Of a DNA stretch of 64,000 nt, positions 15,329-29,953 are shown piece by piece. This stretch comes from an uncultured bacterium (GTDB taxonomy: Bacteria; Patescibacteriota; Saccharimonadia; Saccharimonadales; 2-12-FULL-41-12), in NCBI GenBank assembly GCA_963834265.1, contig CAWIAU010000003.1:12475-76474 (forward strand), given 5' to 3'. A program made the translations under genes and the position numbers. Under the pieces are notes generated by a model. The model saw only the letters and a list, made by a program, of their open reading frames with translations. It was not told the DNA's origin and did not search any database. Position 1 is the first letter of the stretch. Every line of letters begins with the position of its first letter.

Positions 15329-15356
15329 TTGACATTTCGCTCAAAATATCGATAAT
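15329..15356 (+). promoter_or_regulatory. Promoter preceding a structured leader and tRNA-Lys
   Basis: TTGACA (15329-15334), a 16-nt spacer, then GATAAT (15351-15356). Two extended hairpins follow at 15401-15430 and 15451-15509. Confidence 0.4.
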
Positions 15357-15526
15357 CTAAGGAGTTATTTCTACTTTTTTACGCCGTAGGCAGCCAAATG
15401 ATTAAACTAAGCAATTTATTGCTGTTTAATCTTTTGAGAGGAAGAACTGCGGAGAGCTGAGCAAGTGATACGAGCAAACTTGTTTTGTCGTATCACCAGA
15501 TCAGCTCCATTAGCAGATTCTGACGA

Positions 15527-15603
15527 GGGTCCATAGCTCAGCCGGTTAGAGCACCTGCCTTTTAAGCAGGGTGTCGTGGGTTCGAGTCCCACTGGACCCT
15601 CCA
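15527..15603 (+). tRNA. tRNA-Lys (anticodon UUU), CCA encoded
   Basis: The cloverleaf was folded by hand: acceptor GGGTCCA/TGGACCC, anticodon arm CCTGC-CTTTTAA-GCAGG, T arm GTGGG-TTCGAGT-CCCAC. The 3' end ...ACCCTCCA contains the element core CCCTCCA (15597-15603). Confidence 0.95.
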
Positions 15604-15616
15604 GTCTAGTAAAATC

Positions 15617-15638
15617 AGCCCCTTCGGGGGCTTTTTTG
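15617..15638 (+). terminator. Rho-independent terminator after tRNA-Lys
   Basis: AGCCCC-TTCG-GGGGCT followed by a T-run. It lies inside the inserted (relic) DNA, not in ancestral flank. Confidence 0.7.
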
Positions 15639-15639
15639 T

Positions 15640-16628
15640 TACTCCGTATCTGTAAATAGGGCTAATTTCTGGTATATAAACATTTTTGTCTGGTGAAAGC
15701 TGTATTCCGCAGGGAAATAACATTTGTTTACATACTCGCATTGTAGCCTTGTCTAGCTCCCACCATTCGTACCCTGTAAGTTGTCCATGATGTCAAAAGC
15801 GAAGACTATGAACTCATGAAAGTCCTTTTCGAAGTTTTGAGCTTCTGATGCGGTCTTGCTCGGCTGTAACAATATCGATCTTTAACTTGCTCAATTGATT
15901 CTTTAATGTCTATCTGCGAGGTCAGGGTTGGCTACCAAGCTGTCTATGAACTTAGTCTTCTTATCTTTCAGTATAGCAAGACGTCCTAAGGCGATTCTAG
16001 CTTGCTCAATCCTTACTTTCTCGTATGACCGCCATACCTTTCTAGCAGTGTTCTTTTAGCTTTTCTCTTTCTGCTCATAAGACAAGAGGAGCTGTGATAG
16101 CTCCTCCGTAATGTCTTTATGGAGTGTTTCTTGTCTCACTCCGAGATTGCAGTCCCGACAGCGATACCTCCTATATCGCTTGAAACCTTTCTTTTGGCCA
16201 TTGTTCTGCCAATATCCTACTAACCTAGGATAAGGATTACCAGCAAATATACACCTTGTACATTCAGCTTCGTTTGAGAATGGGAACTCTGGGTTGTTTT
16301 TATTTACGATGAATCGTTTACCTTTATTTTTAGCCAATGACACAAGTACCTCGTGTTCAGCCTTGGTTATCATAGCCGTGTGCAAGCCCTCCTCATTTTC
16401 CGCTGGCCAATCACCTAGTTTGAGAAAGCCATAATAGTAGGGGTCGCACATAAGGTTCTTCCAGCGGAACATATCTATTTTTTTACCACCGACTGCTTTT
16501 GGCCCATAGTTCTTTGTTCGTAAGCCCCGCTCAGTGACTTTCTTTAGTCCCTCGCTTACAGTTAATTCACCGGCAACCATTTCTTTGAATGTATCTCGCA
16601 TAGCTGACCAATTAGGCTCACCCTCCAA
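15640..16628 (-). pseudogene. Relic of a second large serine recombinase (no catalytic N-domain, frameshifted C-terminus)
   Basis: The 190-aa ORF (16056-16628) parallels the recombinase plus zinc-ribbon region of the intact LSR (DPYYYGFLKLG vs SDFYLGYYYHLG; CTRC...CRDC vs CGEC...C). Downstream, 15640-16055 still translates to LSR-like coiled-coil/C-terminal pieces in three different frames with stops. Confidence 0.7.
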
Positions 16629-18268
16629 GATTCAAATATTTGCGCTAAAGCTGGTTCTAACTGTTTAGAATCGGCTTTTTCTTTAGTTCCGACCTTGAGG
16701 TAGGATTCTTGTAATGGTGAATAATGGTCAGCTATCGGTTTAAGCCAAGCACTCGGCTCTATTACCAGATGATTGTCTTTCAATGTGAGTTGCTGACCTA
16801 AGGTTTTGAGGATATCCCTCTTTGTTCCGACCGTACCTGACGCAAAGTTCTCCTTAGCGTGTACTGCGAAACTAAATGCCCGTTCATTCAACTCATCATA
16901 GCTATCCGCTCTGCGTTCAGTCTTTCGTAATTGTTCATCAACTTGAGCAAGTTCAGTTTTTAAGTTGTTGCGGATACGGTTGTAATCGTCTTCATCAATT
17001 TGCTCGCGGTTTAGGTTTCTAACTAGCTCATCAACTTCTTTTCGCAGGTTAGCACGTTGCTTAATCAATGTTTCATAGAGCTTAGAGCGGTCTTTAACTT
17101 CTTCTTTGTGGTTTCGTTTAAGAATATCTAATGCCATGTCCTTAAACTCTGGAATAATAGTGTATTTCTCAAGTTCGGTCTGTATATCTCTCTCTATATC
17201 TTCAACTTGTGTGTATACGGTTTGAGTACACGGTCTTTTCATACTCTTGCGAGAACAATAGTAGTAAACATAAGTAACGTACTTGTTTTTGCTTTTAATA
17301 AAACGTGTATTGTGTCTTGCTTGAACTAAGCAACCACATTCACCACAGCGAATCATACCGGCATAGGCGTAATCAAAGCCACCAGTTCGTTTGTTGGCCT
17401 TTTTGCCTAGTAAATCTTGGGCTAGGTGATATTCTTCGGCTGTAATCATTGATTCGTAGTTCCCCTCATATTTTACGCCGAGATGATAGTAATAGCCTAA
17501 GTAAAAGTCGCTCTGAAATATGCGGTACACCATACTCTTAGTCATTGGTTGGCCGCCTAATGGTAAACCGTCTTTCCTGCGTTTATACGGAGGCGTTGTA
17601 TAGCTTGTTTCGCTAATAACGTGTTTCCATATTTGCGAAGGGGTCATTCGCTCATTTAGGAACTGATTCCACATATTTTTAACGATGTCATAGCGTTCAG
17701 GGTCTTTAACAGTTTCAGTTACAATTTTTTTCCCACGCATTACAGGATTTCCGTATTGGTCTAATATAGGCGATTTCTTGTAGCCGGGCATTACTCGTCC
17801 GGGCTTTTCGCCAGTGGCGGCCTTAGTTTTTAAGCCCCTTGAAACGTCCACACCTTGCTTAGAGGACTGATATTGCCCTTGGTTCATAACGATTTGCAAC
17901 ATCATGATACCCTCTGGTGTGTTATCAAAGTTATAGGAGCAGAATTGCAGGTCTTTTAATTTGCCTCGTAGAGCATAGGTGATTTCAGCACTATCTATTT
18001 CATTTCTAGAAAGACGGTTTGGGTGCCAACATACTATTGCGTCAGCCTCGCCATTTTCTATCATATTCATCATTTGCCTGAATATTGTTCGTCCGGTTGT
18101 AAAGGCACTTCGGCTTTCAGGTTCAAGCCATTTAACGATGTTAAGGTCTGGGTACTTTGCTTTAATGTTTTCTATTTGGCTTAAATGGGAAAGTTCTTGT
18201 TTTTCTTTATCTTCGCTAGACTTACGAACGTAAGCGATATAGCGTAAATTGTTTTTAGTCTTTTTCAT
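16562..18268 (-). CDS. Large serine recombinase (integrase/invertase), intact, 568 aa
   Basis: It has an N-terminal resolvase domain (YVRKSSEDK catalytic Ser region; NRLSRN), a recombinase domain, a Cys4 zinc ribbon (CGECGC...CSRKS...C) and a long coiled-coil. The last 60 or so codons lie in repeat A and read across the att core. Confidence 0.9.
   Translation of the reverse strand: MKKTKNNLRYIAYVRKSSEDKEKQELSHLSQIENIKAKYPDLNIVKWLEPESRSAFTTGRTIFRQMMNMIENGEADAIVCWHPNRLSRNEIDSAEITYALRGKLKDLQFCSYNFDNTPEGIMMLQIVMNQGQYQSSKQGVDVSRGLKTKAATGEKPGRVMPGYKKSPILDQYGNPVMRGKKIVTETVKDPERYDIVKNMWNQFLNERMTPSQIWKHVISETSYTTPPYKRRKDGLPLGGQPMTKSMVYRIFQSDFYLGYYYHLGVKYEGNYESMITAEEYHLAQDLLGKKANKRTGGFDYAYAGMIRCGECGCLVQARHNTRFIKSKNKYVTYVYYYCSRKSMKRPCTQTVYTQVEDIERDIQTELEKYTIIPEFKDMALDILKRNHKEEVKDRSKLYETLIKQRANLRKEVDELVRNLNREQIDEDDYNRIRNNLKTELAQVDEQLRKTERRADSYDELNERAFSFAVHAKENFASGTVGTKRDILKTLGQQLTLKDNHLVIEPSAWLKPIADHYSPLQESYLKVGTKEKADSKQLEPALAQIFESWRVSLIGQLCEIHSKKWLPVN
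16621..16801. repeat. Inverted repeat A (181 bp), left end of element, includes LSR 3' coding end
   Basis: Exact reverse complement of 19790-19970, compared block by block with no mismatch seen. Confidence 0.9.
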
Positions 18269-18334
18269 AGTGATTACCTCTAATAATTATCAATTAATTG
18301 AGCGGTAATATCACTGAAAGTTATTTATGATATT

Positions 18335-18420
18335 TTATATAAACCTAGTATTAGGTACATACCTCGTACTTATATAAACCTAATACTTTTATATACCTTA
18401 TACCTTATAAATCTAATACC
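18335..18420. repeat. AT-rich short direct repeats in the LSR upstream region
   Basis: TTATATAAACCTA occurs twice about 35 bp apart. ATACCTT x2 and CTAATAC x2 also occur, all between the 129-aa ORF stop and the LSR start. Confidence 0.4.
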
Positions 18421-18453
18421 CGCATTTTTCACTAATGAATAAAGGCGTGCGCT

Positions 18454-18843
18454 CTATCTCCAAGCACATATAATTATTTCATCATCGTGGTTATTTTCTT
18501 TTTCTTGTCTAGTAATTTCAATATCATCTGCATACTCCACCGCTTGCAAACAGCTTCCTTCTATTAAATCCCAGAACAGAGAGTTAGTATCAAACTCACA
18601 GTGTGATATATAAGGTTTTTTCTTCTTGTCTGTTCTGTATTCTGGATTTGGGCTACTCGGACAGTAAACTTTATACTGGCCAGTTTCAGCTTCATATAGG
18701 ACGAGCTTTAAACCATTAAAGTAGATTCCTGCCTTTGGAAACTCTACTTTAATAAGATACGTCGTATAGTCATCAGACGCTTTTTTGCTATATACATTTG
18801 CAACAGGATTACCAATATTCATCAGGAAGTCGTCGTTTAACAT
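18454..18843 (-). CDS. Hypothetical protein (129 aa)
   Basis: ORF directly upstream of the LSR in the same operon. A weak SpoVG-like beta pattern was noted but is not diagnostic. Confidence 0.4.
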   Translation of the reverse strand: MLNDDFLMNIGNPVANVYSKKASDDYTTYLIKVEFPKAGIYFNGLKLVLYEAETGQYKVYCPSSPNPEYRTDKKKKPYISHCEFDTNSLFWDLIEGSCLQAVEYADDIEITRQEKENNHDDEIIICAWR

Positions 18844-19241
18844 AACGACCTCCCATTAATTTGGTGCCAAGCGAGATGTAAATAATCAAAGCGGTCAAAG
18901 CTGAAACTATCATTAGAACAGTAACGATTATCTACACCAGCTTCAACAAGAACGCGATTGAGTTCACTTTTCCGAAGCCTATTAATACGAAACTTACATC
19001 GTAGCCAGCCGGGCTTTTTTATATCGTACTGCCTATAAAGCCAGATAAATGAGTCAAGTTGTTGGCGACTAAGATTTATTTGTGTTCTATCTTTTGAACT
19101 AAGGAGTAAAGTCCGTACTAAATCCTCTTTAGAAGATAGCAGTTGAGTGTTTGTGTGGTTTAGCTTTGATTGTTTATTTTGAGTTGGAGTTTCTAGATGA
19201 GTTGAGTTCATTGCTTTTTCCATATTCATATTCATATTCAT
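18837..19241 (-). CDS. Hypothetical protein (up to 134 aa; true start probably internal)
   Basis: The ORF overlaps the upstream gene by 68 nt if the first ATG is used. The 5' end is an (ATGAAT)3 repeat. No motif was recognised. Confidence 0.3.
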   Translation of the reverse strand: MNMNMNMEKAMNSTHLETPTQNKQSKLNHTNTQLLSSKEDLVRTLLLSSKDRTQINLSRQQLDSFIWLYRQYDIKKPGWLRCKFRINRLRKSELNRVLVEAGVDNRYCSNDSFSFDRFDYLHLAWHQINGRSLC

Positions 19242-19545
19242 TATTAATAGAGCGATTTGAAGACTCGCCGTATATTCTGGCTTTGATTAGCCGTATATGT
19301 TCCAGCAGAATAGTTGCCGAAAGTTTTAATTCGCTAGCCCAAAACTTTTCAACCTGCTTTTTTAGTTCTGGCGTATTTATAAACAAAAAGACAACCCGCC
19401 TTGGATTGTCTTTATTTATTCTTGCCAGTTTAAATCCGCTTGCTGATAGGGTAGCGGCTAAACCCATGTCTGATGTTTGAAAATAACGAGGGACGCCAGT
19501 AATAGGCGAATTGTCATCTTCATTTCGTGGAGTTTTGCTTTCCAC
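19174..19545 (-). CDS. DUF5659-like small protein (123 aa)
   Basis: The central block DMGLAATLSASGFKLARINKDNPRRVVFLF resembles the DUF5659 pattern common in phage and mobile elements. It is the first gene of the recombinase operon. Confidence 0.4.
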   Translation of the reverse strand: MESKTPRNEDDNSPITGVPRYFQTSDMGLAATLSASGFKLARINKDNPRRVVFLFINTPELKKQVEKFWASELKLSATILLEHIRLIKARIYGESSNRSINNEYEYEYGKSNELNSSRNSNSK

Positions 19546-19691
19546 AATTTACCCCCTTTAGGGACGTGCGAGATACCTGCTTTCTCTAACAGGCTCGTAC
19601 TTTTTAAATTGTTAGCGTAAGTCTGGAGAGAATGACTTACAGCAAAAATCCTATATATTTACCCTCTTAAATTGCTAATTTGTATAAATAC

Positions 19692-19720
19692 ATTATATTA
19701 CACTTATGCTAATATTGCAA
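19692..19720 (-). promoter_or_regulatory. Promoter of the recombinase-module operon
   Basis: On the minus strand: TTGCAA (19715-19720), a 17-nt spacer, then TATAAT (19692-19697). Confidence 0.45.
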
Positions 19721-19789
19721 CATCTATTCGCTGTAATAAAAACATTATGGTATTTTTATGTATAATAAAAATTAACTTTACTTCTTAGG

Positions 19790-19970
19790 TTAGGTCAGCA
19801 ACTCACATTGAAAGACAATCATCTGGTAATAGAGCCGAGTGCTTGGCTTAAACCGATAGCTGACCATTATTCACCATTACAAGAATCCTACCTCAAGGTC
19901 GGAACTAAAGAAAAAGCCGATTCTAAACAGTTAGAACCAGCTTTAGCGCAAATATTTGAATCTTGGAGGG
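19790..19970. repeat. Inverted repeat A' (181 bp), internal copy
   Basis: Exact reverse complement of 16621-16801. It duplicates the LSR C-terminal codons, which is why the track shows ORF 19808-20032. Confidence 0.9.
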
Positions 19971-20130
19971 GCGTAGTTACTTCTATTGGAACTATCTTAC
20001 AGGAAAATACGCTAGTATTTATTGCTGTTTAATAGTGGATTAGGAATTGTGCGGTTCTCACTTCAATCGCTTGTTATAGGGCGAGTATGTAAGGCTAACG
20101 GCGAATTATCACTGTTCCTTCGCTGTATTT
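19964..20130. repeat. Inverted repeat B (167 bp), internal copy
   Basis: Exact reverse complement of 27613-27779. It overlaps A' by the 7-bp core TGGAGGG (19964-19970) and ends 1 bp before the stop codon of the 219-aa gene. Confidence 0.9.
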
Positions 20131-20131
20131 T

Positions 20132-20791
20132 CTAATTCAATAATTCCGAGATTAGTACTTTGAAGTTTAACTCACCAATATTTTTAGGCGAAATCACCAC
20201 ATTCTGTGCGCTACTGAGGGTCATATATGAATAGTCAGCCAACTCTGGAACTGCTTCTATCCATAAATTACGGCTCCGCATAATGACGATAGTTTTATTT
20301 TTTCGTATGGCTTCCCTTACAAGTTCAAACGAATAAAGTTGAGATGGAGTGTAGCGTCCAATATGCTTATAGTTCACAGAGTGATAAGGAAAATACTCTA
20401 TCATCATTATTTTTTTCTTTAGAACTTCCTCTGTAATCCCTTGCTGTATCAAGGGCTTTAGCTTAGCCGACCACCATTTGTAGCCACCGGTTTCTTCAAG
20501 CCCGCCCGCAAAGTAGTAAAAGTCAGATTTATACGGGTCATTTAGATTAGTCCTGCAACCATTAATAAATCTAGCAAGTTTCATATTTATATCTACATCA
20601 GAATCTGTAAATCCTGGGTTCAGTGCCAAGAATATAACCTTTGCATTATCTAAACCACCTACTAAAGGCTCAGGCAAAGTATCAAGTCTTAAACCAATGA
20701 AGTTCTTATGACTCTCAATAACATTACTATCTTCTTCTAATATATATGGTTCTTTTGTTGGTAATTTTATCCATGGGTTTTCTGTATTCAT
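20132..20791 (-). CDS. Hypothetical protein (219 aa), partner of the HEPN-like gene
   Basis: It lies 2 nt downstream of the 334-aa gene. FLALNPGF and YFPYHS are loosely reminiscent of uracil-DNA-glycosylase-superfamily motifs A and B. This is a weak, motif-only impression. Confidence 0.4.
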   Translation of the reverse strand: MNTENPWIKLPTKEPYILEEDSNVIESHKNFIGLRLDTLPEPLVGGLDNAKVIFLALNPGFTDSDVDINMKLARFINGCRTNLNDPYKSDFYYFAGGLEETGGYKWWSAKLKPLIQQGITEEVLKKKIMMIEYFPYHSVNYKHIGRYTPSQLYSFELVREAIRKNKTIVIMRSRNLWIEAVPELADYSYMTLSSAQNVVISPKNIGELNFKVLISELLN

Positions 20792-20793
20792 AA

Positions 20794-21798
20794 TTATTTC
20801 TTTGGATTTAGTTGCACCTTTAGAATTACACGCAGAAAGAAGAAAAACACTATATTAAAAGTCGTAAAGTTACATTCGTTTACCGCAATATCACCATGTG
20901 CAATTTTATGCCTAAATCGTTGTGCATTTGGGTCGTACAAAAAATATCCAAGCATATAGCAAAAGTCTTCACCCCAAACCTTTATGAACTCATCTGATTT
21001 TAATATCTCAACTGACAGTGTCTTATTTCTTGTGCTGGTCTGCTTGCCATTATATGTATAAACATCCAATCCTAATAAGCCTGAAAAATGCATGAATGTT
21101 TTATCAAATAATGGGACTAAAATATGCAGAGCAGAGAAGTAGTCATTAGCAAATCTGCGTTCTAATACAGCTTCAATCTTTAACAAGAACTCACCAGTAA
21201 AAATACCCTTGGACATTATTAAGTCCATTAGATTCTTTTGTGTAAACTGCTTATTGCTAATTAGCTCCGATACTATTCTGTTTAATGAACCAATAGAAAG
21301 ATTCATATTCATACCGTAGTTTTCTAAGAACCAACTGGTTTCAAAGTCATCAAAGGAAGTTACATGCCCTTCATCGCCAATAGTCATGTGTGTAACCAGC
21401 TGTGCGGTTATTGGCACTATTTCAGTAGAAGTTTTTTTGACGCTTGCAACGCTGGGAAGCAACTCTTTTGTATTAACAATATTTTCAAGGTTCTCGCCTA
21501 ACGAATCAGAAGATGTTAATTCTTTAACCATACTTTCAAGAAATGTAACTATATCCTTATCAAGCGGAACATCTATTTTATGGCTCTGCATAGCGTCTTC
21601 TGACTTTTTGGTATATGCAACCGATAGTTTTTTTAATTCCTGCACCGCTGTACTGTCATTTGCTTCCCCATATAATTTCAGCGATTTAATCGCATAAAAT
21701 GAAGCGCTCATGTAATCACCCTTTTCAGCCGCTTCATTGGCTTGCTGTTTGAGCTTTAATGCACTAGCAGTTTTCTCTTTATTAGTCGTTTTGGTCAT
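20794..21798 (-). CDS. HEPN-like (Rx4H) Abi-type protein, 334 aa
   Basis: The C-terminal RFRHKIAHGD fits the HEPN Rx4-6H motif, as in the Abi2/DUF4209-type families. The body is helical, and the gene sits in a defence-island context. Confidence 0.45.
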   Translation of the reverse strand: MTKTTNKEKTASALKLKQQANEAAEKGDYMSASFYAIKSLKLYGEANDSTAVQELKKLSVAYTKKSEDAMQSHKIDVPLDKDIVTFLESMVKELTSSDSLGENLENIVNTKELLPSVASVKKTSTEIVPITAQLVTHMTIGDEGHVTSFDDFETSWFLENYGMNMNLSIGSLNRIVSELISNKQFTQKNLMDLIMSKGIFTGEFLLKIEAVLERRFANDYFSALHILVPLFDKTFMHFSGLLGLDVYTYNGKQTSTRNKTLSVEILKSDEFIKVWGEDFCYMLGYFLYDPNAQRFRHKIAHGDIAVNECNFTTFNIVFFFFLRVILKVQLNPKK

Positions 21799-21953
21799 AC
21801 AGAGATTATACTCTGTTATTTTGTCGGCTTTTTAGGTAGCAAGCTATTCGGGTCTTTACGAATTGAACGTATCCATGTCTTATTCTCAAAATCGTTAAGG
21901 TCAATAGTGATTATCTTGGATTTAGGCATATATCCATATTAATACTTGTTACT

Positions 21954-22220
21954 CTATTTTTCCCGTTCACCGTACTCTGATTTCTTCTTTTCCTGATAAA
22001 TATCATAGATTAGATTAGCCATATTTTTGGCGTCTTTCTTAATCTGTAACTTGCGGCGAGCCGTTTCCAAAGAGTCCTTTGCTAATAGGTCAAGCGTTTC
22101 AACTACCTCAGATATCTCTTGGTCAGACATACTGATAGCGACATCGCCTAGAATATTTCTTGCCTCCTCAATGCTTACGATAGAATTAGAGCTACTCACA
22201 ATATTATTATCCTTTACCAT
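21954..22220 (-). CDS. Hypothetical small acidic/helical protein (88 aa)
   Basis: The ORF heads the minus-strand operon and is divergent from the DUF262 gene. No motif was recognised. Confidence 0.3.
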   Translation of the reverse strand: MVKDNNIVSSSNSIVSIEEARNILGDVAISMSDQEISEVVETLDLLAKDSLETARRKLQIKKDAKNMANLIYDIYQEKKKSEYGEREK

Positions 22221-22261
22221 GATTTTACTTTTTTTACCTGTAATAACCTATACTACTCATA

Positions 22262-23938
22262 ATGACCAATATTCAAGAAACCATTATTAAATCCGAAGGT
22301 ATTGCGCATTTATTGCAGGATAGAAAGCTAGTTGTGCCTCCTTATCAACGTTCTTATTCATGGGAAAAGCACAACGTAGAACAGTTCTTTCTGGACATTA
22401 CTGACGCATTCCTAGAAGGCCATCATGAATACTTCCTTGGTTCTATCGTTCTTATTAAATCTGATAACGGAAAACTTGAAATTGTTGACGGGCAACAGAG
22501 GCTTGCAACCACAGCTCTATTTATTGCCGCAATTAAAAATTATTTTATTAAGAACGGAGAGAAAATAAGAGCTGACGCAGTAGTATCTAAATATCTTTAT
22601 TCAATCGACGAACTAAGTATGGACATGGAGCAACACCTAGAATTGAATGTTCAAGACAACGGATTTTTTCAAGAATTATGTGAAAAGCCATGGCCGGTAA
22701 CACCTGTATCAAGAAAATCCGTAAAAAACTTATTTAGTGCCTCTGAGTTGGCAGAACAAAAAGTTGAGGATATTGCTAAAAATACCAAAGACCCAGTAAA
22801 CACACTCGCAAGATTAGTAAAATACCTAAAAGATAATGTGAAGGCTATTGCAGTTATTGTTCCGGATGAAGCGAATGCTTTTACAATATTTGAAACACTT
22901 AATGACCGAGGGCTTGCTTTATCTATTGCTGATTTACTAAAGAATTACTTATTCGGTAAATCCGAGAAACGTATAGAAGAAGCAAAGAGTCAGTGGGCTC
23001 TACTCAGCGGAATATTAGAAACAATTGGAGATGATTCTCTACTACCAACTTTTATAAGACATTTTTGGTCATCTCACTATGGCCCGACCACTGAAAAAGA
23101 ACTATTTAATAAAATAAAAACCAGAATTAATTCAAGTAAAGACGCAATAGATTTCATAGATAAACTTGTTAAACACTCTAAGGATTATGTAGCTTTATTA
23201 AATCCTGAGCATGAAAAATGGCAAAAGTTAAGCCCTGATGTACAGCAATCTATAAAAATTATTAACGATATGAGGCTAGAGCAACCGCGTCCATTGTTAC
23301 TAGCAATTGTTGGATATTTTTCGGACCGGGAGTTATCCAAGGCTCTAAAGAAGACGGTGGATTGGACGGTCAGACTACAAGTGGCTGGTAATACCAGAAC
23401 TGGTCAGTTTGCAAAAACACTATCTGATATTTCCATAAAAGTAGTAGAAGGAGAAATTGTTAACACAAAGCAATTAACAATTGAAATCCAAAAAATACTG
23501 CCTTCTAACGAGGACTTTAGTACTGCATTTGAAAACCTTGGTGCTACACGTTATATCGCCCGTTATTACTTGATTGAGTTTGAGAAAAAACAGCGTGAAT
23601 TAAGTGGAGAGAAAATTGAGCTTGTACCAAGTTATTCTACTGATGAAGTAAACCTTGAACATATACTTCCTATAACCCCGGGCAAAGAATGGCCTGATAC
23701 CGATACCGAAGTTTCACGGGCTTATTACAATCGCTTGGGCAACCTGACCATAATAAACTCTAAGGAAAACTCAAAATTAGGAAACCAGAGTTTTTCAAAA
23801 AAGAAAATAGTTTATAAAAGTTCAGCTTTTCAACTAACTAAGTCAATTTGTAAGTACACCGACTGGGACATTGACAGCATTAAAGACCGCCAAAAAGATA
23901 TGGCTAAATTAGCACCGAAGATATGGCCGATAATCTAG
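22262..23938 (+). CDS. DUF262/DUF1524 protein (GmrSD-like type IV, modification-dependent restriction enzyme family)
   Basis: N-terminal DUF262 motifs (PPYQRSYSW, DGQQRL) plus a C-terminal DUF1524 His-Me finger (EHILP...LGNLTIINSKENSKLGN). Confidence 0.85.
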   Translation: MTNIQETIIKSEGIAHLLQDRKLVVPPYQRSYSWEKHNVEQFFLDITDAFLEGHHEYFLGSIVLIKSDNGKLEIVDGQQRLATTALFIAAIKNYFIKNGEKIRADAVVSKYLYSIDELSMDMEQHLELNVQDNGFFQELCEKPWPVTPVSRKSVKNLFSASELAEQKVEDIAKNTKDPVNTLARLVKYLKDNVKAIAVIVPDEANAFTIFETLNDRGLALSIADLLKNYLFGKSEKRIEEAKSQWALLSGILETIGDDSLLPTFIRHFWSSHYGPTTEKELFNKIKTRINSSKDAIDFIDKLVKHSKDYVALLNPEHEKWQKLSPDVQQSIKIINDMRLEQPRPLLLAIVGYFSDRELSKALKKTVDWTVRLQVAGNTRTGQFAKTLSDISIKVVEGEIVNTKQLTIEIQKILPSNEDFSTAFENLGATRYIARYYLIEFEKKQRELSGEKIELVPSYSTDEVNLEHILPITPGKEWPDTDTEVSRAYYNRLGNLTIINSKENSKLGNQSFSKKKIVYKSSAFQLTKSICKYTDWDIDSIKDRQKDMAKLAPKIWPII

Positions 23939-24031
23939 AAAGTCTGTCGCTTGATGAAGATAGTCTAAATGCAATGGTTGATTACTTTAAATTACTAGCA
24001 GAAATAGAAGCTCAGCAAGGTGATTAAGTAG

Positions 24032-24202
24032 CTATTGTTTGAAAAGGTCTTTCAGCTCAGGGTGATTCTTTATCCAATAATGAAGCGTGTTTCTAGATAC
24101 ATTAAGTCGCTTTGCAATATCAACCTTACTCTCTTTATTTTTCACCGCCTCTTTGATTATCGGAATTACTTCGCTGAGTTCGTATTTCTTAGGTCTAGCC
24201 AT
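24032..24202 (-). CDS. Small helix-turn-helix protein (56 aa from MARPKKYE)
   Basis: It has an HTH-like stretch, VDIAKRLNVSRNTLHYWIKN. It lies 8 nt downstream of the putative nuclease as the last gene of the R-M operon. Confidence 0.45.
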   Translation of the reverse strand: MARPKKYELSEVIPIIKEAVKNKESKVDIAKRLNVSRNTLHYWIKNHPELKDLFKQ

Positions 24203-24210
24203 AATAGTAG

Positions 24211-25500
24211 TTAGCCCACAAGCTCCTGTAAACTTTCCAACCATGCATTACATGGTTCATCTATCGGAGCATATAGTCTTCTTTTTTGAGATAGTGATTC
24301 AGCATAAGCGATTAACCATGCCTTTGCAATAGGCAAACTTTTTTCATTCCCGTATTGCTTCGCATACTTATCTAACCAGTCGTCAAACACAAGAAGCTCG
24401 ATTTTATTGCCGGTTAACTCTTCAATTTCTGCCACTCTTGAATTGATTTCGTCATCTAAAATCGGACTAGAGCTTGTTACAAAACCCAATGCCTGTAACT
24501 CATAATTCTTTGCAGTTATTTTTTCATATATTTCTTCTATTTCATCACGCAAGTATTCTTTGCCATATTTTGCGTCCCAAGCGACTACAATCTCATTGCC
24601 ATCTAATAACTCAACATCGCCTATATTTCCATGCTTCTTATTCGCTGAACGCATTTGAGATAATGGCTTTACCGTAAGCCCTTCCAGTAATAACAAATCT
24701 TGCAGAGCTTGAAAGAAACTATGTATAGATATTTCAAAAAGTCTTGCCTTATAGCTTGAAGTGTCTATGTGTTTTTGGATTAGCTCTCTAACTTGGTCTA
24801 AACTACTAACCTCTATTTGGTTAACTTTGCCTAATACTTTTTCTGCCAATGTATTAAAATTACCTGCTCGGTTGATTAGTAAAGACAGCACATATTTTAG
24901 AGCTTCTTCTGCGGGGAGTTTGTTTTTCTCAAGCTGTGAAACAATCTCTAACCATTCATCTCTAGCTCCACGCAATTTTGCTTTGTATACTTTTGAATAA
25001 GGATAATTTTCCGCTAGACTTCGCGTCATCATAAAGCCATCTGCATTAAGTCTAATTAAATCGTAATGCCTTAGCACAGGCGTGATGTAATACTTGTCCA
25101 AAGAACGCATAGAAATGCCCTCTTTCCAAGAAAATGAAGCACTACTTGAACTGCCTTTATGGAGCATAACTGATTGCTCTGGGATGATTGCCTTAATAGT
25201 TAGTTGCATGATTGAGATTGCAACCAAGGCTCTACCAACTTCACTAGTAACCGAATTAACCAATCTATTTAAAATGTCCAACTGTTCGTCGGTTAACGTG
25301 TCAGAGGCATAAGTCGTACCTTCAACTAAGCCGTCAATAAGATTGCTTAAATAGCTAGCTTCTAGAGCCGTTTTTATTTGAGCATATCTACGTTTGGCTT
25401 CATCGCTAACCGTACCTTCTTCAAATACTAAATCAAGACCATCAGACGTTTCATGGAGTTCACTTTTATTTAGGTAGACTTTTAGAAAGATATCATCCAT
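24211..25500 (-). CDS. Putative type II restriction endonuclease (PD-(D/E)xK)
   Basis: It sits immediately downstream of the C5-methyltransferase (1-nt gap). It has the candidate catalytic motif GDVELL-x9-VVAWDAKYGK. No closer family assignment is possible. Confidence 0.5.
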   Translation of the reverse strand: MDDIFLKVYLNKSELHETSDGLDLVFEEGTVSDEAKRRYAQIKTALEASYLSNLIDGLVEGTTYASDTLTDEQLDILNRLVNSVTSEVGRALVAISIMQLTIKAIIPEQSVMLHKGSSSSASFSWKEGISMRSLDKYYITPVLRHYDLIRLNADGFMMTRSLAENYPYSKVYKAKLRGARDEWLEIVSQLEKNKLPAEEALKYVLSLLINRAGNFNTLAEKVLGKVNQIEVSSLDQVRELIQKHIDTSSYKARLFEISIHSFFQALQDLLLLEGLTVKPLSQMRSANKKHGNIGDVELLDGNEIVVAWDAKYGKEYLRDEIEEIYEKITAKNYELQALGFVTSSSPILDDEINSRVAEIEELTGNKIELLVFDDWLDKYAKQYGNEKSLPIAKAWLIAYAESLSQKRRLYAPIDEPCNAWLESLQELVG

Positions 25501-25501
25501 T

Positions 25502-27499
25502 TTAGAGAGCCTTAGCGTACTGTACTTTTCTAGATGTTAATGTGGGGAAGGCGTAGGGAATAATGTAATGCCCGGCTTTAATCTGGGGGTTAGTGTTCCT
25601 ATTCCTAATTTCATAACCGTAAAGTTTAAGTCTTCTCATAGCTTCTTCAATAACATTCTCTTTCTCACCGACAATCTCAACTAACTCAGCTAGGGTCTTT
25701 TCAACACCAACTATACTCTTTTTACCAAATGACTGTATTAAACGCCAAATGACATCTTGATTAATTTGCTCGTCTAGAACGGTAGTTATTTTTATAGTCG
25801 GAGAATATTGGTAGTAACCTGCGAACTGAACCATATCGGCATAGCCTAGGCATTCTTTAATTTCCATCTCAATAAACTTCCAACCAGCCAAGTAATGATT
25901 TAAGTCTGGTTCTTCAAGAATTAGTTGTATCTTCTCAAAGCTAAAAGGCCATGATTCACTCAACACTGGCTCTATTGTTGTTACTACTGGGGCTAATGTA
26001 GTTTTCAGTGATTTATATTTACCAACTTCATCGTTAGATGATGTAATTATTTGCCAAGTATTATTCTTGATTTTGGTTTCAATAAATACATTAATCCCTT
26101 TATCATTTCCTTCACTTAAATTGAGCTTGGCGTCCAAATGAAAAGGCTTTCTATTTTTAAATAGAATTGGTTTCAGCTCCGTTTTCTTTAGTTTTGCTAT
26201 GGCACCCTCTGCGATTTGTTGATATCTCGTAGTCAACTGTCGTTTGCGAGTTCTAAAACCTAATTTTTCGTTGGGAGCTAATAGAGGTAAGTTAAAAGGA
26301 AGTTTTGTATCAAATACTTGAGTTAATACTGACAGTGCAAGCATCCTTCCAAACTGTGGAGGTACGCTGTTACCAATCTGATGTATTGCTACGCCCCTTG
26401 AACCTACTAATTCAAAGTTATCAGGAAAAGTTTGTAATCGCTTTAATTCATCTGCATTAAACGGTCTATTGAACCAGCTAAAGGGGCCTGTGTACTTTCC
26501 GCCCTGCGCTTTAATTGCTCTAACTGGCATTGATGGGTCAGCTTTATATAAAAAGTCGGAGAACTTAGAACGCCATCCAAATACAGGTTGGGGGTGTCCT
26601 AATTTTTTTGTGTAGTAACTATAATTCAACCCCGGTGGAATACCTTCAAGTAAATGACCGTATTGACCACCTAATCCGTTGCCCTCGTTTGCGCTGTGGT
26701 CTGCCAACGCTTCTCCAGCAGTATAGTGATTCAACCCTATTCTAGAATCAGGGCCGTGAGTTGGCGCAGGGAACTTAAAGTCAATCTTAGGGTCTTTAAT
26801 TCCAACGATGATTAGCCGTTCACGGTGTTGAGGCACACCATAATCTGCGGCGTCTAAAATGCGATAATGGAGGCGATAACCGGCTTCATTAAAAGATTTG
26901 ATGATAAGCCTCCAAGGTTCTCCGCCTTGGGCACCGACAATCGCATACACATTTTCAAATAGAAAAGCCTTGGGCTTTAATGTATTTAAAAGCCGGACAT
27001 ATTCTTGGAATAACATTCCGCGAGGGTCTTCTATTCCTTTAACGCCCGCCGCGCGTCTTCCAGCGGCAGAAAAAGTCTGGCAAGGGGGGCCACCTACTAT
27101 CAAATCTATTTCGCCTATATTCTCAGGGTTGTATTTGCGAATATCTATTGTGTTAACTTTGCTACCTTGGAATATTTTGCCTTTTTCTGTATTTGCTTCC
27201 AGTGTCTTGGTAAACTTTGGTTCAATTTCCACCATTTCAACAATGTCAAAACCAGCCTGATGAAATCCTATGTCTAGTCCACCTGCGCCACTGAATAAGC
27301 TGAGGGTTCTTATTTTTTTCTTGCCTAATGTTTTAGCAGTAATGCCATTTATTATGGCTCCAAAGTCATCAACCCAGCCGGGCTTTTCAGTATCAATACC
27401 TAACTCACTCAAAAAGTTTTCTTTAACAGGCTCACTCACTTCGTCTATTAGAGATTGCTGTTTTGCTTTTGAATTAGTAAGCTGTTGAGCCGCGCCCAT
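25502..27499 (-). CDS. DNA (cytosine-5)-methyltransferase with about 260-aa C-terminal extension
   Basis: Motif I is LFSGAGGLDIGF, IV is GGPPCQTFS, VI is FLFENV, VIII is QHRERLIIVG and X is GNSVPP. The sequence after motif X has no recognisable domain. Confidence 0.92.
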   Translation of the reverse strand: MGAAQQLTNSKAKQQSLIDEVSEPVKENFLSELGIDTEKPGWVDDFGAIINGITAKTLGKKKIRTLSLFSGAGGLDIGFHQAGFDIVEMVEIEPKFTKTLEANTEKGKIFQGSKVNTIDIRKYNPENIGEIDLIVGGPPCQTFSAAGRRAAGVKGIEDPRGMLFQEYVRLLNTLKPKAFLFENVYAIVGAQGGEPWRLIIKSFNEAGYRLHYRILDAADYGVPQHRERLIIVGIKDPKIDFKFPAPTHGPDSRIGLNHYTAGEALADHSANEGNGLGGQYGHLLEGIPPGLNYSYYTKKLGHPQPVFGWRSKFSDFLYKADPSMPVRAIKAQGGKYTGPFSWFNRPFNADELKRLQTFPDNFELVGSRGVAIHQIGNSVPPQFGRMLALSVLTQVFDTKLPFNLPLLAPNEKLGFRTRKRQLTTRYQQIAEGAIAKLKKTELKPILFKNRKPFHLDAKLNLSEGNDKGINVFIETKIKNNTWQIITSSNDEVGKYKSLKTTLAPVVTTIEPVLSESWPFSFEKIQLILEEPDLNHYLAGWKFIEMEIKECLGYADMVQFAGYYQYSPTIKITTVLDEQINQDVIWRLIQSFGKKSIVGVEKTLAELVEIVGEKENVIEEAMRRLKLYGYEIRNRNTNPQIKAGHYIIPYAFPTLTSRKVQYAKAL

Positions 27500-27612
27500 T
27501 CCTATACCCTCTTTTAGTCTTTTGACGTTTATTTCCTGGTAAACATTATAACTCTTTATTCAGCCTATTGCTTACCTTTACAGTTATTAATAAATTAAAG
27601 CTAATTTATTCT

Positions 27613-27779
27613 AAATACAGCGAAGGAACAGTGATAATTCGCCGTTAGCCTTACATACTCGCCCTATAACAAGCGATTGAAGTGAGAACCGCACAATTCC
27701 TAATCCACTATTAAACAGCAATAAATACTAGCGTATTTTCCTGTAAGATAGTTCCAATAGAAGTAACTACGCCCCTCCA
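27613..27779. repeat. Inverted repeat B' (167 bp), right end of element
   Basis: Exact reverse complement of 19964-20130. It ends with the core CCCTCCA at 27773-27779. Confidence 0.9.
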
Positions 27780-27808
27780 CGGTGAACCTAGTAGAAAGAT
27801 AGGAACTA

Positions 27809-27830
27809 AGAGTCATTATGGCTCTTTTTT
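27809..27830 (+). terminator. Orphan rho-independent terminator just outside attR
   Basis: AGAGTC-ATTAT-GGCTCT followed by TTTTTT. No plus-strand gene lies upstream in the present arrangement, which fits it being the ancestral tRNA-Lys terminator. Confidence 0.55.
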
Positions 27831-27853
27831 ATTGACACCACGAATACAAATAG

Positions 27854-27872
27854 TATACCCTAGGGGGGTATA
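27854..27872 (+). promoter_or_regulatory. CsoR-type operator overlapping the copper-operon promoter
   Basis: The GC-cored palindrome TATACCC-TAGGG-GGGTATA is of the type bound by CsoR repressors. TTGACA lies at 27832-27837 upstream. Confidence 0.5.
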
Positions 27873-27885
27873 GGAATTACTAAAT

Positions 27886-28374
27886 ATGCGCAATAATCAT
27901 CAGCAAAATGAACATAGTGTAAATGAAATGGCTGTCAGCGCAACCCTTCACTGCTTAACTGGCTGTGCCATTGGCGAGGTCTTAGGACTCATTATTGGCA
28001 CTATACTTGGATTAAGTACTGTAATTACAATACTGTTAGCAGTTATTCTGGCATTTATCTTTGGCTTTAGCCTTTCAACGCTGCCATTAGTTAAAGCTGG
28101 AATAGGCTTTACTGCCGCACTAGCTGTTGTAGCTGCAGCGGATACACTTTCAATTGCCACCATGGAACTGGTTGATAACCTAGTAATGATGGGAATTCCA
28201 GGCGCCTTACATGCAGGGCTTGTAGACCCATTATTTTGGATTAGTATGCCTATTGCACTTACTGCTGCCTTCTTTGCGGCGGTGCCCGTTAATAAACACT
28301 TGCTAAAGCGTAATAAAGGTCATGCCCTGACAATGAAATTGTTGGACGAGCAGGGTCACGGACATAACCACTAA
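27886..28374 (+). CDS. DUF4396-family membrane protein
   Basis: It has the TLHCLTGCAIGEVLG motif and 4 TM helices. A His-rich C-terminus (GHGHNH) suggests metal handling. Confidence 0.55.
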   Translation: MRNNHQQNEHSVNEMAVSATLHCLTGCAIGEVLGLIIGTILGLSTVITILLAVILAFIFGFSLSTLPLVKAGIGFTAALAVVAAADTLSIATMELVDNLVMMGIPGALHAGLVDPLFWISMPIALTAAFFAAVPVNKHLLKRNKGHALTMKLLDEQGHGHNH

Positions 28375-28380
28375 GGAGGT

Positions 28381-28659
28381 ATGATGAAGTACGGTTCTAC
28401 AGATACCAAACCTGACCTACTTAAGCGTCTAAATCGCATAGAGGGTCAAGTGCGGGGTGTATCAAAAATGGTGCAAGACGATAAGTATTGTATAGATATT
28501 CTTACCCAAGTAAGCGCAGCAAAAGCAGCTTTGGATAAAGTTGCGTTAGAACTTCTACGTGACCATGCCAAGCACTGCTTAACGAATTATGATATTCAAG
28601 AGCACAGCAAAGAAAATAAGGCCGATGAACTAGTCGGCGCAATTAGCAGAATGCTTTAA
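28381..28659 (+). CDS. csoR: Copper-sensing repressor CsoR/RcnR family
   Basis: It has LKRLNRIEGQVRGV, YCIDILTQ and a C-terminal H..HC, giving the C-H-C ligand pattern. Confidence 0.8.
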   Translation: MMKYGSTDTKPDLLKRLNRIEGQVRGVSKMVQDDKYCIDILTQVSAAKAALDKVALELLRDHAKHCLTNYDIQEHSKENKADELVGAISRML

Positions 28660-28669
28660 GGAGGAAATT

Positions 28670-29065
28670 ATGCAAACTAAACCACTACTTTACGGATTAA
28701 TCGGCTTCTTCATCGGCGGATTTTTGGTTTCTGTGGCTGCCACCACATTTGATAAACCAGAGAATAAAGAAACCGCAAGCAACAATTCAATAGTGAGCAG
28801 TAAATCTATGGAAGACATTATGTCTAGCTTAAAAAACAAATCTGGCGACGAGTATGACAAATCGTTCATATCAAGCATGATTGGTCACTACGAAGGCGCA
28901 GTTGAAATGGCAAAACTATCTGCAATGAATGCAAAACATGATGAAATTAAGAAGCTTTCAGAAGCAATTATTACTGCACAAGAACAAGAAATTGCTGAAA
29001 TGAAGCAGTGGCAAAAAGATTGGGGCTATTCATCTAGCGAAAGTCCTTCACATTCTACTCACTAA
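28670..29065 (+). CDS. DUF305-family protein with N-terminal membrane anchor
   Basis: It has DUF305 repeats (FISSMIGHYEGAVEMA; AIITAQEQEIAEMKQW). Confidence 0.65.
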   Translation: MQTKPLLYGLIGFFIGGFLVSVAATTFDKPENKETASNNSIVSSKSMEDIMSSLKNKSGDEYDKSFISSMIGHYEGAVEMAKLSAMNAKHDEIKKLSEAIITAQEQEIAEMKQWQKDWGYSSSESPSHSTH

Positions 29066-29227
29066 ACAGGAGCTTTTTATATACTAGGTTTTTCCTCTGC
29101 GATTTTAGTTGTAATAGATTGCACTTTAATCCACCACGAAATGACTTATATTAAAGGCAGGTTATTTTTTGAATATTTAGCTCGATACTTTCCAATAAGC
29201 ACCTTTTAAGCTGTTATAATAAGGATA

Positions 29228-29953
29228 ATGTCAGGGCATAGCAAGTGGTCAACAATCAAGCGGCAAAAAGGCGTGAACGACGCCAAGCGTGGAGCGATAT
29301 TTACGAAACTGGGCAATAATATTGCAGTAGCAGCCCGAGGAGGCTCTGAACCGGAAACTAATTTCTCGCTTCGCCTGGCAATAGACAAAGCCAAAGCGGC
29401 TAATATGCCAACGAATAATATACAGCGGGCAATTGACCGTGGATCAGGCAAGCTGGGAGGTGAGCAGATACAGGAAGTTATGTATGAAGGCTATGGCCCG
29501 GGCGGTGCGGCTATCCTGATAGAATGCGCCACGGATAATATCAATCGTACTTATCCAGAAGTAAAAAATGCCTTTACAAAAACAGGTGGCAGCATAGCAG
29601 AAAAAGGCTCAGTAGCCTTTCAGTTTGAACATAAAGGCTTGATCGTGATCAACGGCTCCGGTGAAGATTTATTGCTGGAGGTTTTGGATGCCGGGGCTGA
29701 AGACGCCGAAGAAGATGACGGCGAAATGACGATTTATACTGATCCGAAAGATTTGGCTCGAGTACGCGATGCACTCAAGGCAAAAGGTACCGAAATAATT
29801 GAAGCTCAGCTGACCTATGTACCAAAAAATATAATAGAAATCAGCGATGCAGCCACGGCAGGCAAAATCGAACGCTTAATGGATGCACTAGAAAATCTCG
29901 ACGATGTCAGCCAAACACACGTCAACTTCGTTATTAGCGATATTAACGGATGA
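29228..29953 (+). CDS. yebC: YebC/PmpR-family transcriptional regulator
   Basis: It starts MSGHSKWSTIKRQKG and is collinear with the family. It is preceded by an extended -10 (TGTTATAAT). Confidence 0.9.
   Translation: MSGHSKWSTIKRQKGVNDAKRGAIFTKLGNNIAVAARGGSEPETNFSLRLAIDKAKAANMPTNNIQRAIDRGSGKLGGEQIQEVMYEGYGPGGAAILIECATDNINRTYPEVKNAFTKTGGSIAEKGSVAFQFEHKGLIVINGSGEDLLLEVLDAGAEDAEEDDGEMTIYTDPKDLARVRDALKAKGTEIIEAQLTYVPKNIIEISDAATAGKIERLMDALENLDDVSQTHVNFVISDING

Follow-up and report, generated by a model that had tools for sequence, protein, structure and literature searches.

The 64,000-nucleotide stretch of DNA analysed here (the window) belongs to an uncultured bacterium of the Candidatus Saccharimonadales, and the region of interest lies between a tRNA-Lys gene and a copper operon. 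Its anatomy is read directly: positions 15604-27779 contain the remains of a gene for a large serine recombinase (LSR), an intact LSR gene (LSR2) with three small open reading frames (ORFs) upstream of it, a complete inverted copy of an attachment site (attP) and a cargo segment. The whole region is most probably a composite island, produced by two LSR-made insertions at the 3' end of tRNA-Lys(UUU), with recombinases from two distant lineages. The element next to the tRNA is called E1 in this work, and the element carrying LSR2 is called E2.

The tRNA-Lys gene (15527-15603, plus strand, anticodon ttt) is intact, and its 3' end reads ...GGACCCTCCA (in fuller form ...CACTGGACCCTCCA). A first-pass annotation of this DNA had proposed that the gene ends in the core sequence CCCTCCA at 15597-15603, and ARAGORN, Rfam (tRNA, 73.8 bits) and the sequence itself agree on this point; this first core copy is the left junction of the relic element. 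The same annotation had warned that a heptamer alone proves little, and rightly: CCCTCCA has seven copies in the window, where 4.5 would be expected, and seven or more copies were reached in 15 of 100 shuffles, a count that is not significant by itself. The plus-strand copies at 15597, 16621 and 27773 are validated through their context, which is the order of a tandem array: core at 15597, relic LSR, core at 16621, LSR2 with the rest of E2, and core at 27773. An additional copy at 19964-19970, on the minus strand and with perfect inverted repeats around it, had been overlooked.

The tRNA gene is followed by a GC-rich hairpin and a T-run (15617-15632, plus strand) detected by the terminator scan, with a folding energy of -13.9 kcal/mol (z = -3.1). 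The hairpin is located within the conserved C-terminal coding sequence of the relic (KAPEGA; compare the C-termini of its homologues P0004 and P0006), which identifies it as element DNA. The proposal that tRNA-Lys is now terminated by a hairpin of inserted DNA is in this way upheld.

The relic itself (15604-16620, minus strand) preserves only the recombinase, zinc-ribbon and C-terminal parts of an LSR gene, the 3' end of which runs into the tRNA. Its reading frame is open for 190 residues and then closed by a nonsense codon; three other stops lie in frame, and the frame shifts at least once. No domain was recognised in it by Pfam, BLASTP against intact LSR2 gave no recognition (E = 2.7), an exact-sequence look-up of its ORF matched no contig, and only six relatives were found in the database search (P0002-P0007). 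The first-pass annotation would have given up its identification as an LSR if profile searches showed no similarity to serine recombinases. The Pfam and BLASTP results pointed that way, and they were overturned by the homologues and by the comparison of profiles. One homologue, P0007, carries an N-terminal Resolvase domain (PF00239) directly before ...PDEPNWTAM...GLRTKNYGPKAVGGK, which is the sequence that opens the relic, and the profile-profile comparison (hhalign) between the relic family and the LSR2 family gave a probability of 96% and E = 3.4e-9 over 292 columns. In this alignment, which is the protein-level check that the annotation had asked for, the relic begins at the equivalent of LSR2 residue ~188, where the recombinase domain starts, so the catalytic domain, already reported as missing, is indeed absent. 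With homology to the recombinase and zinc-ribbon regions, and with neither a catalytic domain nor an uninterrupted frame, the relic is classified on these comparisons as a pseudogene of a large serine recombinase.

As regards its target, the relic-family proteins P0004 and P0006 both end in ...KAPE.A.FTRLEG and read into tRNA antisense, P0006 continuing with PVGLEPTT..., the reverse complement of a tRNA 3' end. In the locus of another relative (L001), the LSR of this family stops 20 nt from tRNA-Lys, and positions 15527-15688 of the window are 84% identical at the nucleotide level to the 3' end of that LSR plus the tRNA. These data support the view that the family of the relic also targets the 3' end of tRNA-Lys, and together with P0007 and the profile comparison they bear out the description of the relic as a frameshifted, minus-strand LSR gene that points at the tRNA. 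The earlier claim of two related LSR elements in tandem needs to be qualified: the tandem arrangement at the tRNA end stands, and the two recombinases belong to distantly related lineages, the kinship of which is recognisable at the profile level only. In L001 (9433-10954), as well as in L002 and L003, two ORFs with an overlap of 35 nt take the place of a single relic-family recombinase gene, a Resolvase ORF of 200 aa and a second ORF of 317 aa; in L001 the frame changes no more than about 60 nt away from the truncation point of the window relic.

LSR2 (16562-18268, minus strand) is an intact recombinase of 568 amino acids, identified by its Pfam domains, the invariant positions of its family and the C-terminal tails. 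The Resolvase domain (PF00239, residues 11-154) is recognised with E = 4.3e-18, and the Recombinase (PF07508, 6.9e-5) and Zn_ribbon_recom (PF13408, 1.1e-7) domains are both above the curated cut-offs. Every invariant residue of the family, R15 and S17 among them, is kept. The ORF spans the second core copy (16621-16627, plus strand), which falls on codons W548-R549, and relic DNA supplies the last 19 codons of the ORF. This core copy is the attL site of E2, and its chromosomal half-site is relic DNA instead of tRNA: in the 15 positions before the core, read by eye, the left arm of E2 and the tRNA arm are identical at only one. Based on the junction sequences of the window, of L004, of L007-L028 and of a circular contig described below (L095), we infer that LSR2 recombines attP with attB at a 2-bp crossover. 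Exact-sequence look-ups of LSR2 and of the 134-aa ORF described below matched no contig.

The nearest homologue of LSR2 (P0017, from L004) is 90% identical and belongs to the same 90% cluster. Its gene runs into tRNA-Lys with the junction ...TGGAGGG/cccagtgggactcgaacc (longer form ...gaatctTGGAGGGcccagtgggactcgaacc) and with no relic between, and the host locus is the same as in the window, with DUF192 and RimK genes beyond tRNA-Lys. The family is large (681 matches below 1e-20). It was studied in the loci L007-L086, taken from species-representative genomes (n = 80, nearly all Patescibacteria), and in the proteins P0017-P0138. An alignment of 19 members has W548 and R549 invariant, their codons TGG AGG being the core, with a consensus tail WRAxxDSNPRHPA. 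Among the best 121 proteins, the tail is tRNA antisense in 97, is cut by the contig end at WRxx in 14, and is of an attP type, with mutual similarity, in 5. The target specificity of the family is seen directly in the genomes: in 65 of the 80 loci the LSR gene ends at or close to a tRNA gene of the opposite strand, and the targeted tRNA shifts with the distance from LSR2. The closest 20 loci all adjoin tRNA-Lys, more distant ones adjoin tRNAs for Ser, Asn, Gln, Asp, Tyr and Trp, and both Lys-ttt and Lys-ctt are found in the family. From these sequences the LSR2 family is recognised as one that targets tRNA 3' ends, with an ORF predicted to cross the recombination site.

The circular contig L095 has 8,060 nt with a terminal overlap of 30 nt, giving a circle of 8,030 bp in which the LSR ORF reads through attP; judged by this structure, it is the excised form of a family element. 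Besides the recombinase, it encodes helix-turn-helix, BLIP-like, DUF5659 and DnaD_N-like ORFs, and it possibly replicates. A scan of viral contigs for the LSR2 family gave only four distant LSRs, and therefore the family does not look phage-borne. No paper describing it in Saccharibacteria was found in the literature searches. According to a reference resource of 2015, no serine integrase was known with a tRNA gene as its target; some cases have been reported since then. In two loci (L015, 3555-6616, and L026, 113-3148) five attR-like sites stand in series upstream of the recombinase, each consisting of TGGAGG followed by the conserved tail motif, and those of L026 have a repeated left flank in common. 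Each series may represent an array, either of remnants or of small units that lack a recombinase.

E2 extends from 16621 to 27779 (about 11.2 kb) and includes sites of three types: attL, attP and attR. Its P' arm (16628-16801) corresponds to the last 58 codons of LSR2. The three small ORFs upstream of LSR2 (18454-19545, minus strand) encode proteins of 129, 134 and 123 amino acids, the last one a DUF5659 protein (Pfam, 3e-12). By tblastn, the DUF5659 and 134-aa ORFs were found upstream of the LSR in many relatives, which makes them part of a conserved module. No small second serine recombinase of the DsiA/CcrA type is present, the three ORFs upstream of LSR2 having no resolvase domain according to Pfam. 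The cargo segment (20131-27612), analysed by Pfam and PADLOC, contains a 219-aa ORF, a DUF4209 protein that matches the candidate system PDC-S39, a GmrSD-type enzyme (HEC-06, 1.9e-176), a 429-aa ORF and a C5 cytosine methyltransferase, and on the basis of these matches it is predicted to be defensive. The right end of the element (plus strand) is its attR, made of the P arm (27613-27772) and the fourth core copy (27773-27779), and it has the conserved attP-tail signature found at the attR sites of relatives.

Two inverted repeats are present in E2. The first, I1, pairs 16621-16801 (the core plus the P' arm) with 19790-19970 over 181 nt, and the second, I2, pairs 19964-20130 with 27613-27779 (the attR of the element) over 167 nt; both are 100% complementary, each ends at a core, and they overlap at the minus-strand core 19964-19970. 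The segment 19790-20130 (341 bp, minus strand) is in consequence made of a P' copy (19790-19963), a core (19964-19970) and a P copy (19971-20130), that is, a perfect, complete and inverted attP such as would be recreated by joining the ends of E2. Its plus strand encodes the last 58 LSR codons followed by an attP-type tail, ...ESWRGVVTSIGTILQENTLVFIAV and a stop codon, which resembles the attP-type tail of P0029. The copy is placed between the two modules of the element: the recombinase module (16802-19789) lies between inverted P' arms, the cargo (20131-27612) between inverted P arms.

Such a structure in a metagenome-assembled contig could be an assembly artefact produced from mixed reads of the integrated and excised forms, all the more so as excised circles of the LSR2 family do assemble. 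Against this, an independent Logan assembly (k = 31, run ERR12037361) has a contig of 7,542 nt that equals window positions 20101-27642 according to the mapping of gene coordinates, so that it covers the whole cargo and extends into the P arm by exactly k-1 = 30 nt on both sides. As the contig reaches the P arm at both ends, both junctions between cargo and P arm are present in the reads and neither end branches elsewhere. L004, from another sample and another assembler, opens with a perfect (100%) inverted copy of 102 nt of its own LSR 3' end, a P' repeat with variants of its own. The artefact explanation is largely refuted by these data and is very improbable; the inverted repeats are real, a conclusion drawn directly from the assemblies, and not an assembly error. 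The Logan contig stops at the repeats and carries no information about orientation.

On the other side of E2, the sequence at 27780-27830 (plus strand) is proposed to be the native 3' trailer of tRNA-Lys with its terminator, now 12.2 kb away from the tRNA. The terminator scan and the fold give a hairpin at 27808-27826 followed by a T-run (-9.6 kcal/mol, z = -2.7), and the ORF list contains no plus-strand gene upstream of it, in agreement with the terminator without a gene that had been noticed just outside the right-hand core. In relatives, where attR was located through the conserved tail-encoding motif after TGGAGG, the flank typically has CCA and, a few bases later, a hairpin with a T-run. 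Orthology of the flank is observed directly in two of them. The window flank CGGTGAACCTAGTAGAAAGATAGGAACTAAGAGTCATTATGGCTCTTTTTT is orthologous to the flank at the attR of an independent element in L013 (...ACAGATGACCCTAGTAGGAAAGTCACAGCCCAAAAGTCATTGATCGGTTCTTTTT), and also to positions 585-640 of L087, located there between tRNA-Lys and the genes DUF4396-CsoR-DUF305, with no LSR. L087 begins inside tRNA-Lys, and the orthologous stretch is followed by the same TTGACA box, the palindrome ATACCCTAGGGGGGTAT, DUF4396-CsoR-DUF305, ComEC, YebC and RuvCAB. These comparisons support the identification of the right flank as the native trailer. The ancestral order that had been postulated, tRNA-Lys-CCA followed by this flank and the copper operon, is supported by L013 and L087 as far as the flank and the operon are concerned; the exact empty junction was not recovered.

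A scan of a genome collection with the 159-aa host protein adjoining the tRNA gave no match, and the contexts of DUF4396 in L088-L093 are unrelated to the window locus. Regarding L087, the block at 30-586 (557 nt) has a 150-aa ORF and a terminator of its own right after CCA, and the bases before the orthologous stretch resemble, weakly, a decayed core; the block may be an older remnant. The palindrome ATACCCTAGGGGGGTAT is conserved at 27855-27871 of the window and 666-682 of L087, in both cases between the TTGACA box and the start of DUF4396-CsoR-DUF305, and from this position it is probably the operator of a CsoR-type repressor.

The island would have been formed in the following way, the order of events, the deletion mechanism and the present immobility being the parts that we infer. 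Each element would have set its recombinase gene beside the tRNA, on the opposite strand, through a crossover located within the 3' end of the recombinase ORF and inside CCTCCA, a sequence made up of the last acceptor-stem bases, the discriminator base and CCA. With the crossover at this place, the tRNA would stay intact, the last 10-25 residues of the recombinase would be swapped, and a copy of the core would be left at the far end. A later deletion in E1, the element proximal to the tRNA, would have removed the whole stretch between the middle of its recombinase gene and its distal end, and the remainder would have decayed. The reduction of one element to about 1 kb by a deletion ending at a core copy had already been proposed, and the relic does stop within about 3 bp of the core. 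Two insertions and one deletion would in this way suffice for the present order, and either insertion could have been the first. Beyond the right core, the original trailer and terminator of the tRNA would be followed by the copper operon. The left junction of E2 has relic DNA in the place of the tRNA half-site, and for this reason canonical excision of E2 is probably disabled.

Several points weigh against this history. A deletion flush with the core is a coincidence unless it was made by a recombinase, and the relic arm is unlike the tRNA half-site. The attL of a resident LSR element is not a full attB, and nor is its attR, so a second insertion would need a relaxed site requirement. No genome of a relative was found in which tRNA-Lys-CCA stands directly before CGGTGAACC: in L013 the shared motif stands 12 bases further away from CCA, and L087 has the 557 nt with the 150-aa ORF between tRNA-Lys and the orthologous flank. 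The link between tRNA-Lys and the copper operon is known from one relative only (L087), and the metagenome scan with DUF4396 gave 75 other loci with tRNA-Lys upstream in none (0/75). Finally, no standard serine-recombinase reaction was found that would give the inverted attP copy.

In an alternative course of events, E2 would have inserted neither at the tRNA nor at an E1 junction but at a pseudo-attB inside the recombinase gene of E1, the rest of E1 having been lost by a second event that joined the right end of E2 to the trailer. LSRs are known to use pseudo-sites, and the relic ends within about 3 bp of the core. However, the single identity in 15 positions between the relic arm and the tRNA half-site, and the fact that homologues read PDEPNW at this place without CCCTCCA, speak against a pseudo-site; besides, a deletion flush with the core would still be needed on the other side, and hence nothing is gained in simplicity. 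This course of events is considered unlikely. It can also be argued that the shared heptamer and the similarity of the flank are a coincidence, the relic and E2 being a single element unrelated to the tRNA. The number of heptamers in the window is compatible with that idea, but the repeats start exactly at the cores, the codon pair TGGAGG never varies in the family and, in dozens of genomes, lies at the tRNA junction, and the flank is orthologous in both L013 and L087, which makes a coincidence extremely improbable.

Going back to the inverted attP within the composite island, its copies in the window and in L004 provide some indications about its evolution. The repeat arms of the two elements are only 84-87% identical to each other and nevertheless perfect within each element, and therefore the copies evolve in concert. 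L004 is the only relative that shares the repeats, as inverted repeats at the LSR 3' end are absent from 87 other related loci. In relatives with a methyltransferase, this gene is divergent from the recombinase, and therefore the simplest description of E2 is a canonical element with a 341-bp inverted insertion, located in the intergenic DNA that separates the methyltransferase from the DUF5659 operon, and with a flip of the cargo. The copy would have originated by inverted duplication in the common ancestor of E2 and the L004 element, our best guess being a one-off event in the circular form such as a template switch, and gene conversion would keep the attP copies identical.

Other origins were considered and rejected. 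The integration of a dimer or of a tandem array yields direct and not inverted copies, and an inversion between attP and a pseudo-attB produces no duplication. An antiparallel exchange of attP with attL or attR gives palindromic junctions, and CCCTCCA has no palindromic dinucleotide. A tandem array followed by inversion and deletion would require three coincident end points, and an artefact of a mixed-population assembly graph is contradicted by the Logan contig.

A functional explanation has also been taken into account, namely that the inverted attP is a device maintained in this sub-lineage of LSRs that makes the recombinase and cargo modules invertible. Segments bracketed by inverted recombination sites are indeed present (I1 and I2), two elements that are about 15% apart both have repeats that match perfectly within the element, the inner boundary of the P' arm agrees within 6 nt in both of them despite the different neighbouring DNA, and the attP-type tail is conserved in the LSR2 family. 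Nevertheless, the feature is missing from the 87 other loci of the family, and no protein of a flipped form is recorded in the 90% cluster. The identity of the repeats is accounted for by gene conversion without any function, and the conservation of the tail can be conservation of the P half-site at the DNA level. Recombination of attP with attL, or of two attP sites, is not known as a normal reaction of LSRs. Small serine invertases of the Hin/Gin type, acting on identical short sites, are not represented in E2, where the sole recombinase is the 568-aa LSR. A maintained device is for these reasons quite improbable.

If the device were real, a flip of the recombinase module would swap the junction-encoded tail of LSR2 for the native attP-type tail and a terminator, and the excised circle with its two inverted attP sites would be the serine-recombinase counterpart of the layout of the yeast 2-micron plasmid; the circle could integrate via either site or use inversion during replication. 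In the 2-micron plasmid the recombinase, Flp, is a tyrosine recombinase, and the inversion serves the amplification of copy number. An excised E2 would also be a circle with two identical inverted repeats that bear the sites and separate two unique segments, one of them encoding the recombinase; unlike the yeast plasmid, in which inversion has been demonstrated, the likeness of E2 is one of sequence layout alone.

The phage serine integrases φC31 and Bxb1 share with LSR2 the resolvase, recombinase and zinc-ribbon domains and the conversion, predicted for LSR2, of attP and attB into attL and attR with minimal identity at the crossover. They differ in having protein-coding or intergenic targets and an attP that is not known to lie inside their own ORF.

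Tandem insertion followed by decay at tRNA and tmRNA genes has already been published (10.1101/2020.12.28.424599; PMC3146451). In the ssrA islands of Dehalococcoides (McMurdie et al. 2011, PMC3146451), a serine recombinase of ~540 amino acids, DsiB, is encoded on the reverse strand adjoining attL. Those islands resemble the present one in the serine recombinase gene, which is on the reverse strand and borders an attL at the 3' end of a tRNA-like gene, in the tandem stack with short repeats of the target 3' end between its members, and in the fixation or degradation of some of the islands. On the other hand, the target here is tRNA-Lys and not tmRNA, the repeat has 7 bp and not 20 bp, there is no DsiA, the ORF crosses the crossover into the target, an internal inverted attP is present and the host is a Saccharibacterium. 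The tycheposons of Prochlorococcus (Hackl et al., 10.1101/2020.12.28.424599) are also cargo elements at tRNA genes, where elements occur in tandem, newcomers are located beside the tRNA, integrases are fragmented and partial tRNA repeats are left behind. However, they use mostly tyrosine recombinases (an LSR in 27 of 937 integrase-carrying elements) and have repeats of about 40 nt, whereas the window has an LSR family, two LSRs of different lineages and an anti-phage defence cargo.

The window also carries the signature of the islands detected by Islander (Hudson et al. 2015, PMC4383910), in which tandem arrays are recognised as well: an intact tRNA (here tRNA-Lys), an integrase inside (LSR2) and displaced 3'-end fragments (CCCTCCA at 16621 and 27773). 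It differs from them in that their integrase is a tyrosine recombinase, while here serine recombinases are found and the repeat has only 7 bp. Furuta et al. (2010, PMC2853133) described restriction-modification units between long inverted repeats and also a unit formed by a restriction-modification system plus an integrase in a tRNA gene. E2 resembles the former in having a block with restriction-modification genes (methyltransferase and neighbours) between such repeats; in E2, in contrast, the repeats are perfect, belong to the arm of its own attachment site and end at the core, and there is no duplication of the target. The stacking of islands at a tRNA gene is thus a known process, and the noteworthy parts of this locus are the LSR family that targets tRNA genes and the inverted attP copy.

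The composite island would explain 12 kb of this genome, including the borrowed terminator of tRNA-Lys, the orphaned terminator before the copper operon and the source of the defence genes. The LSR2 family is large in Saccharibacteria and other Patescibacteria, nearly all its members being located at tRNA 3' ends. The natural targets of these enzymes are short and conserved, and such recombinases could be useful genetic tools where a bacterium is difficult to manipulate. As a structural feature, the inverted attP copy is a minor curiosity, of weight only if it is functional.

Some minor features of the tRNA-Lys surroundings complete the description of the locus. A long imperfect hairpin (15446-15506; GAGCTGAGCAAGTGATACGA...TCGTATCACCAGATCAGCTC) lies in the leader between a predicted promoter (15329-15356) and tRNA-Lys, and it is missing from the shorter leader of L004. 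An exact match of 17 nt (ATTTATTGCTGTTTAAT) joins the region 100 nt upstream of tRNA-Lys (15414-15430) to the P arm (20017-20033 and 27710-27726), which there encodes the end of the attP-type tail; alignment gives no extension of the match, a rough estimate of its chance probability is ~0.02, and it is possibly due to chance. The orientation of tRNA-Lys relative to YebC-RuvC also varies among the Saccharimonadales: the tRNA points towards these genes in the window (15527-29953) and in L087, and in L001, L012 and L027 it points away, which suggests an old inversion at this locus.

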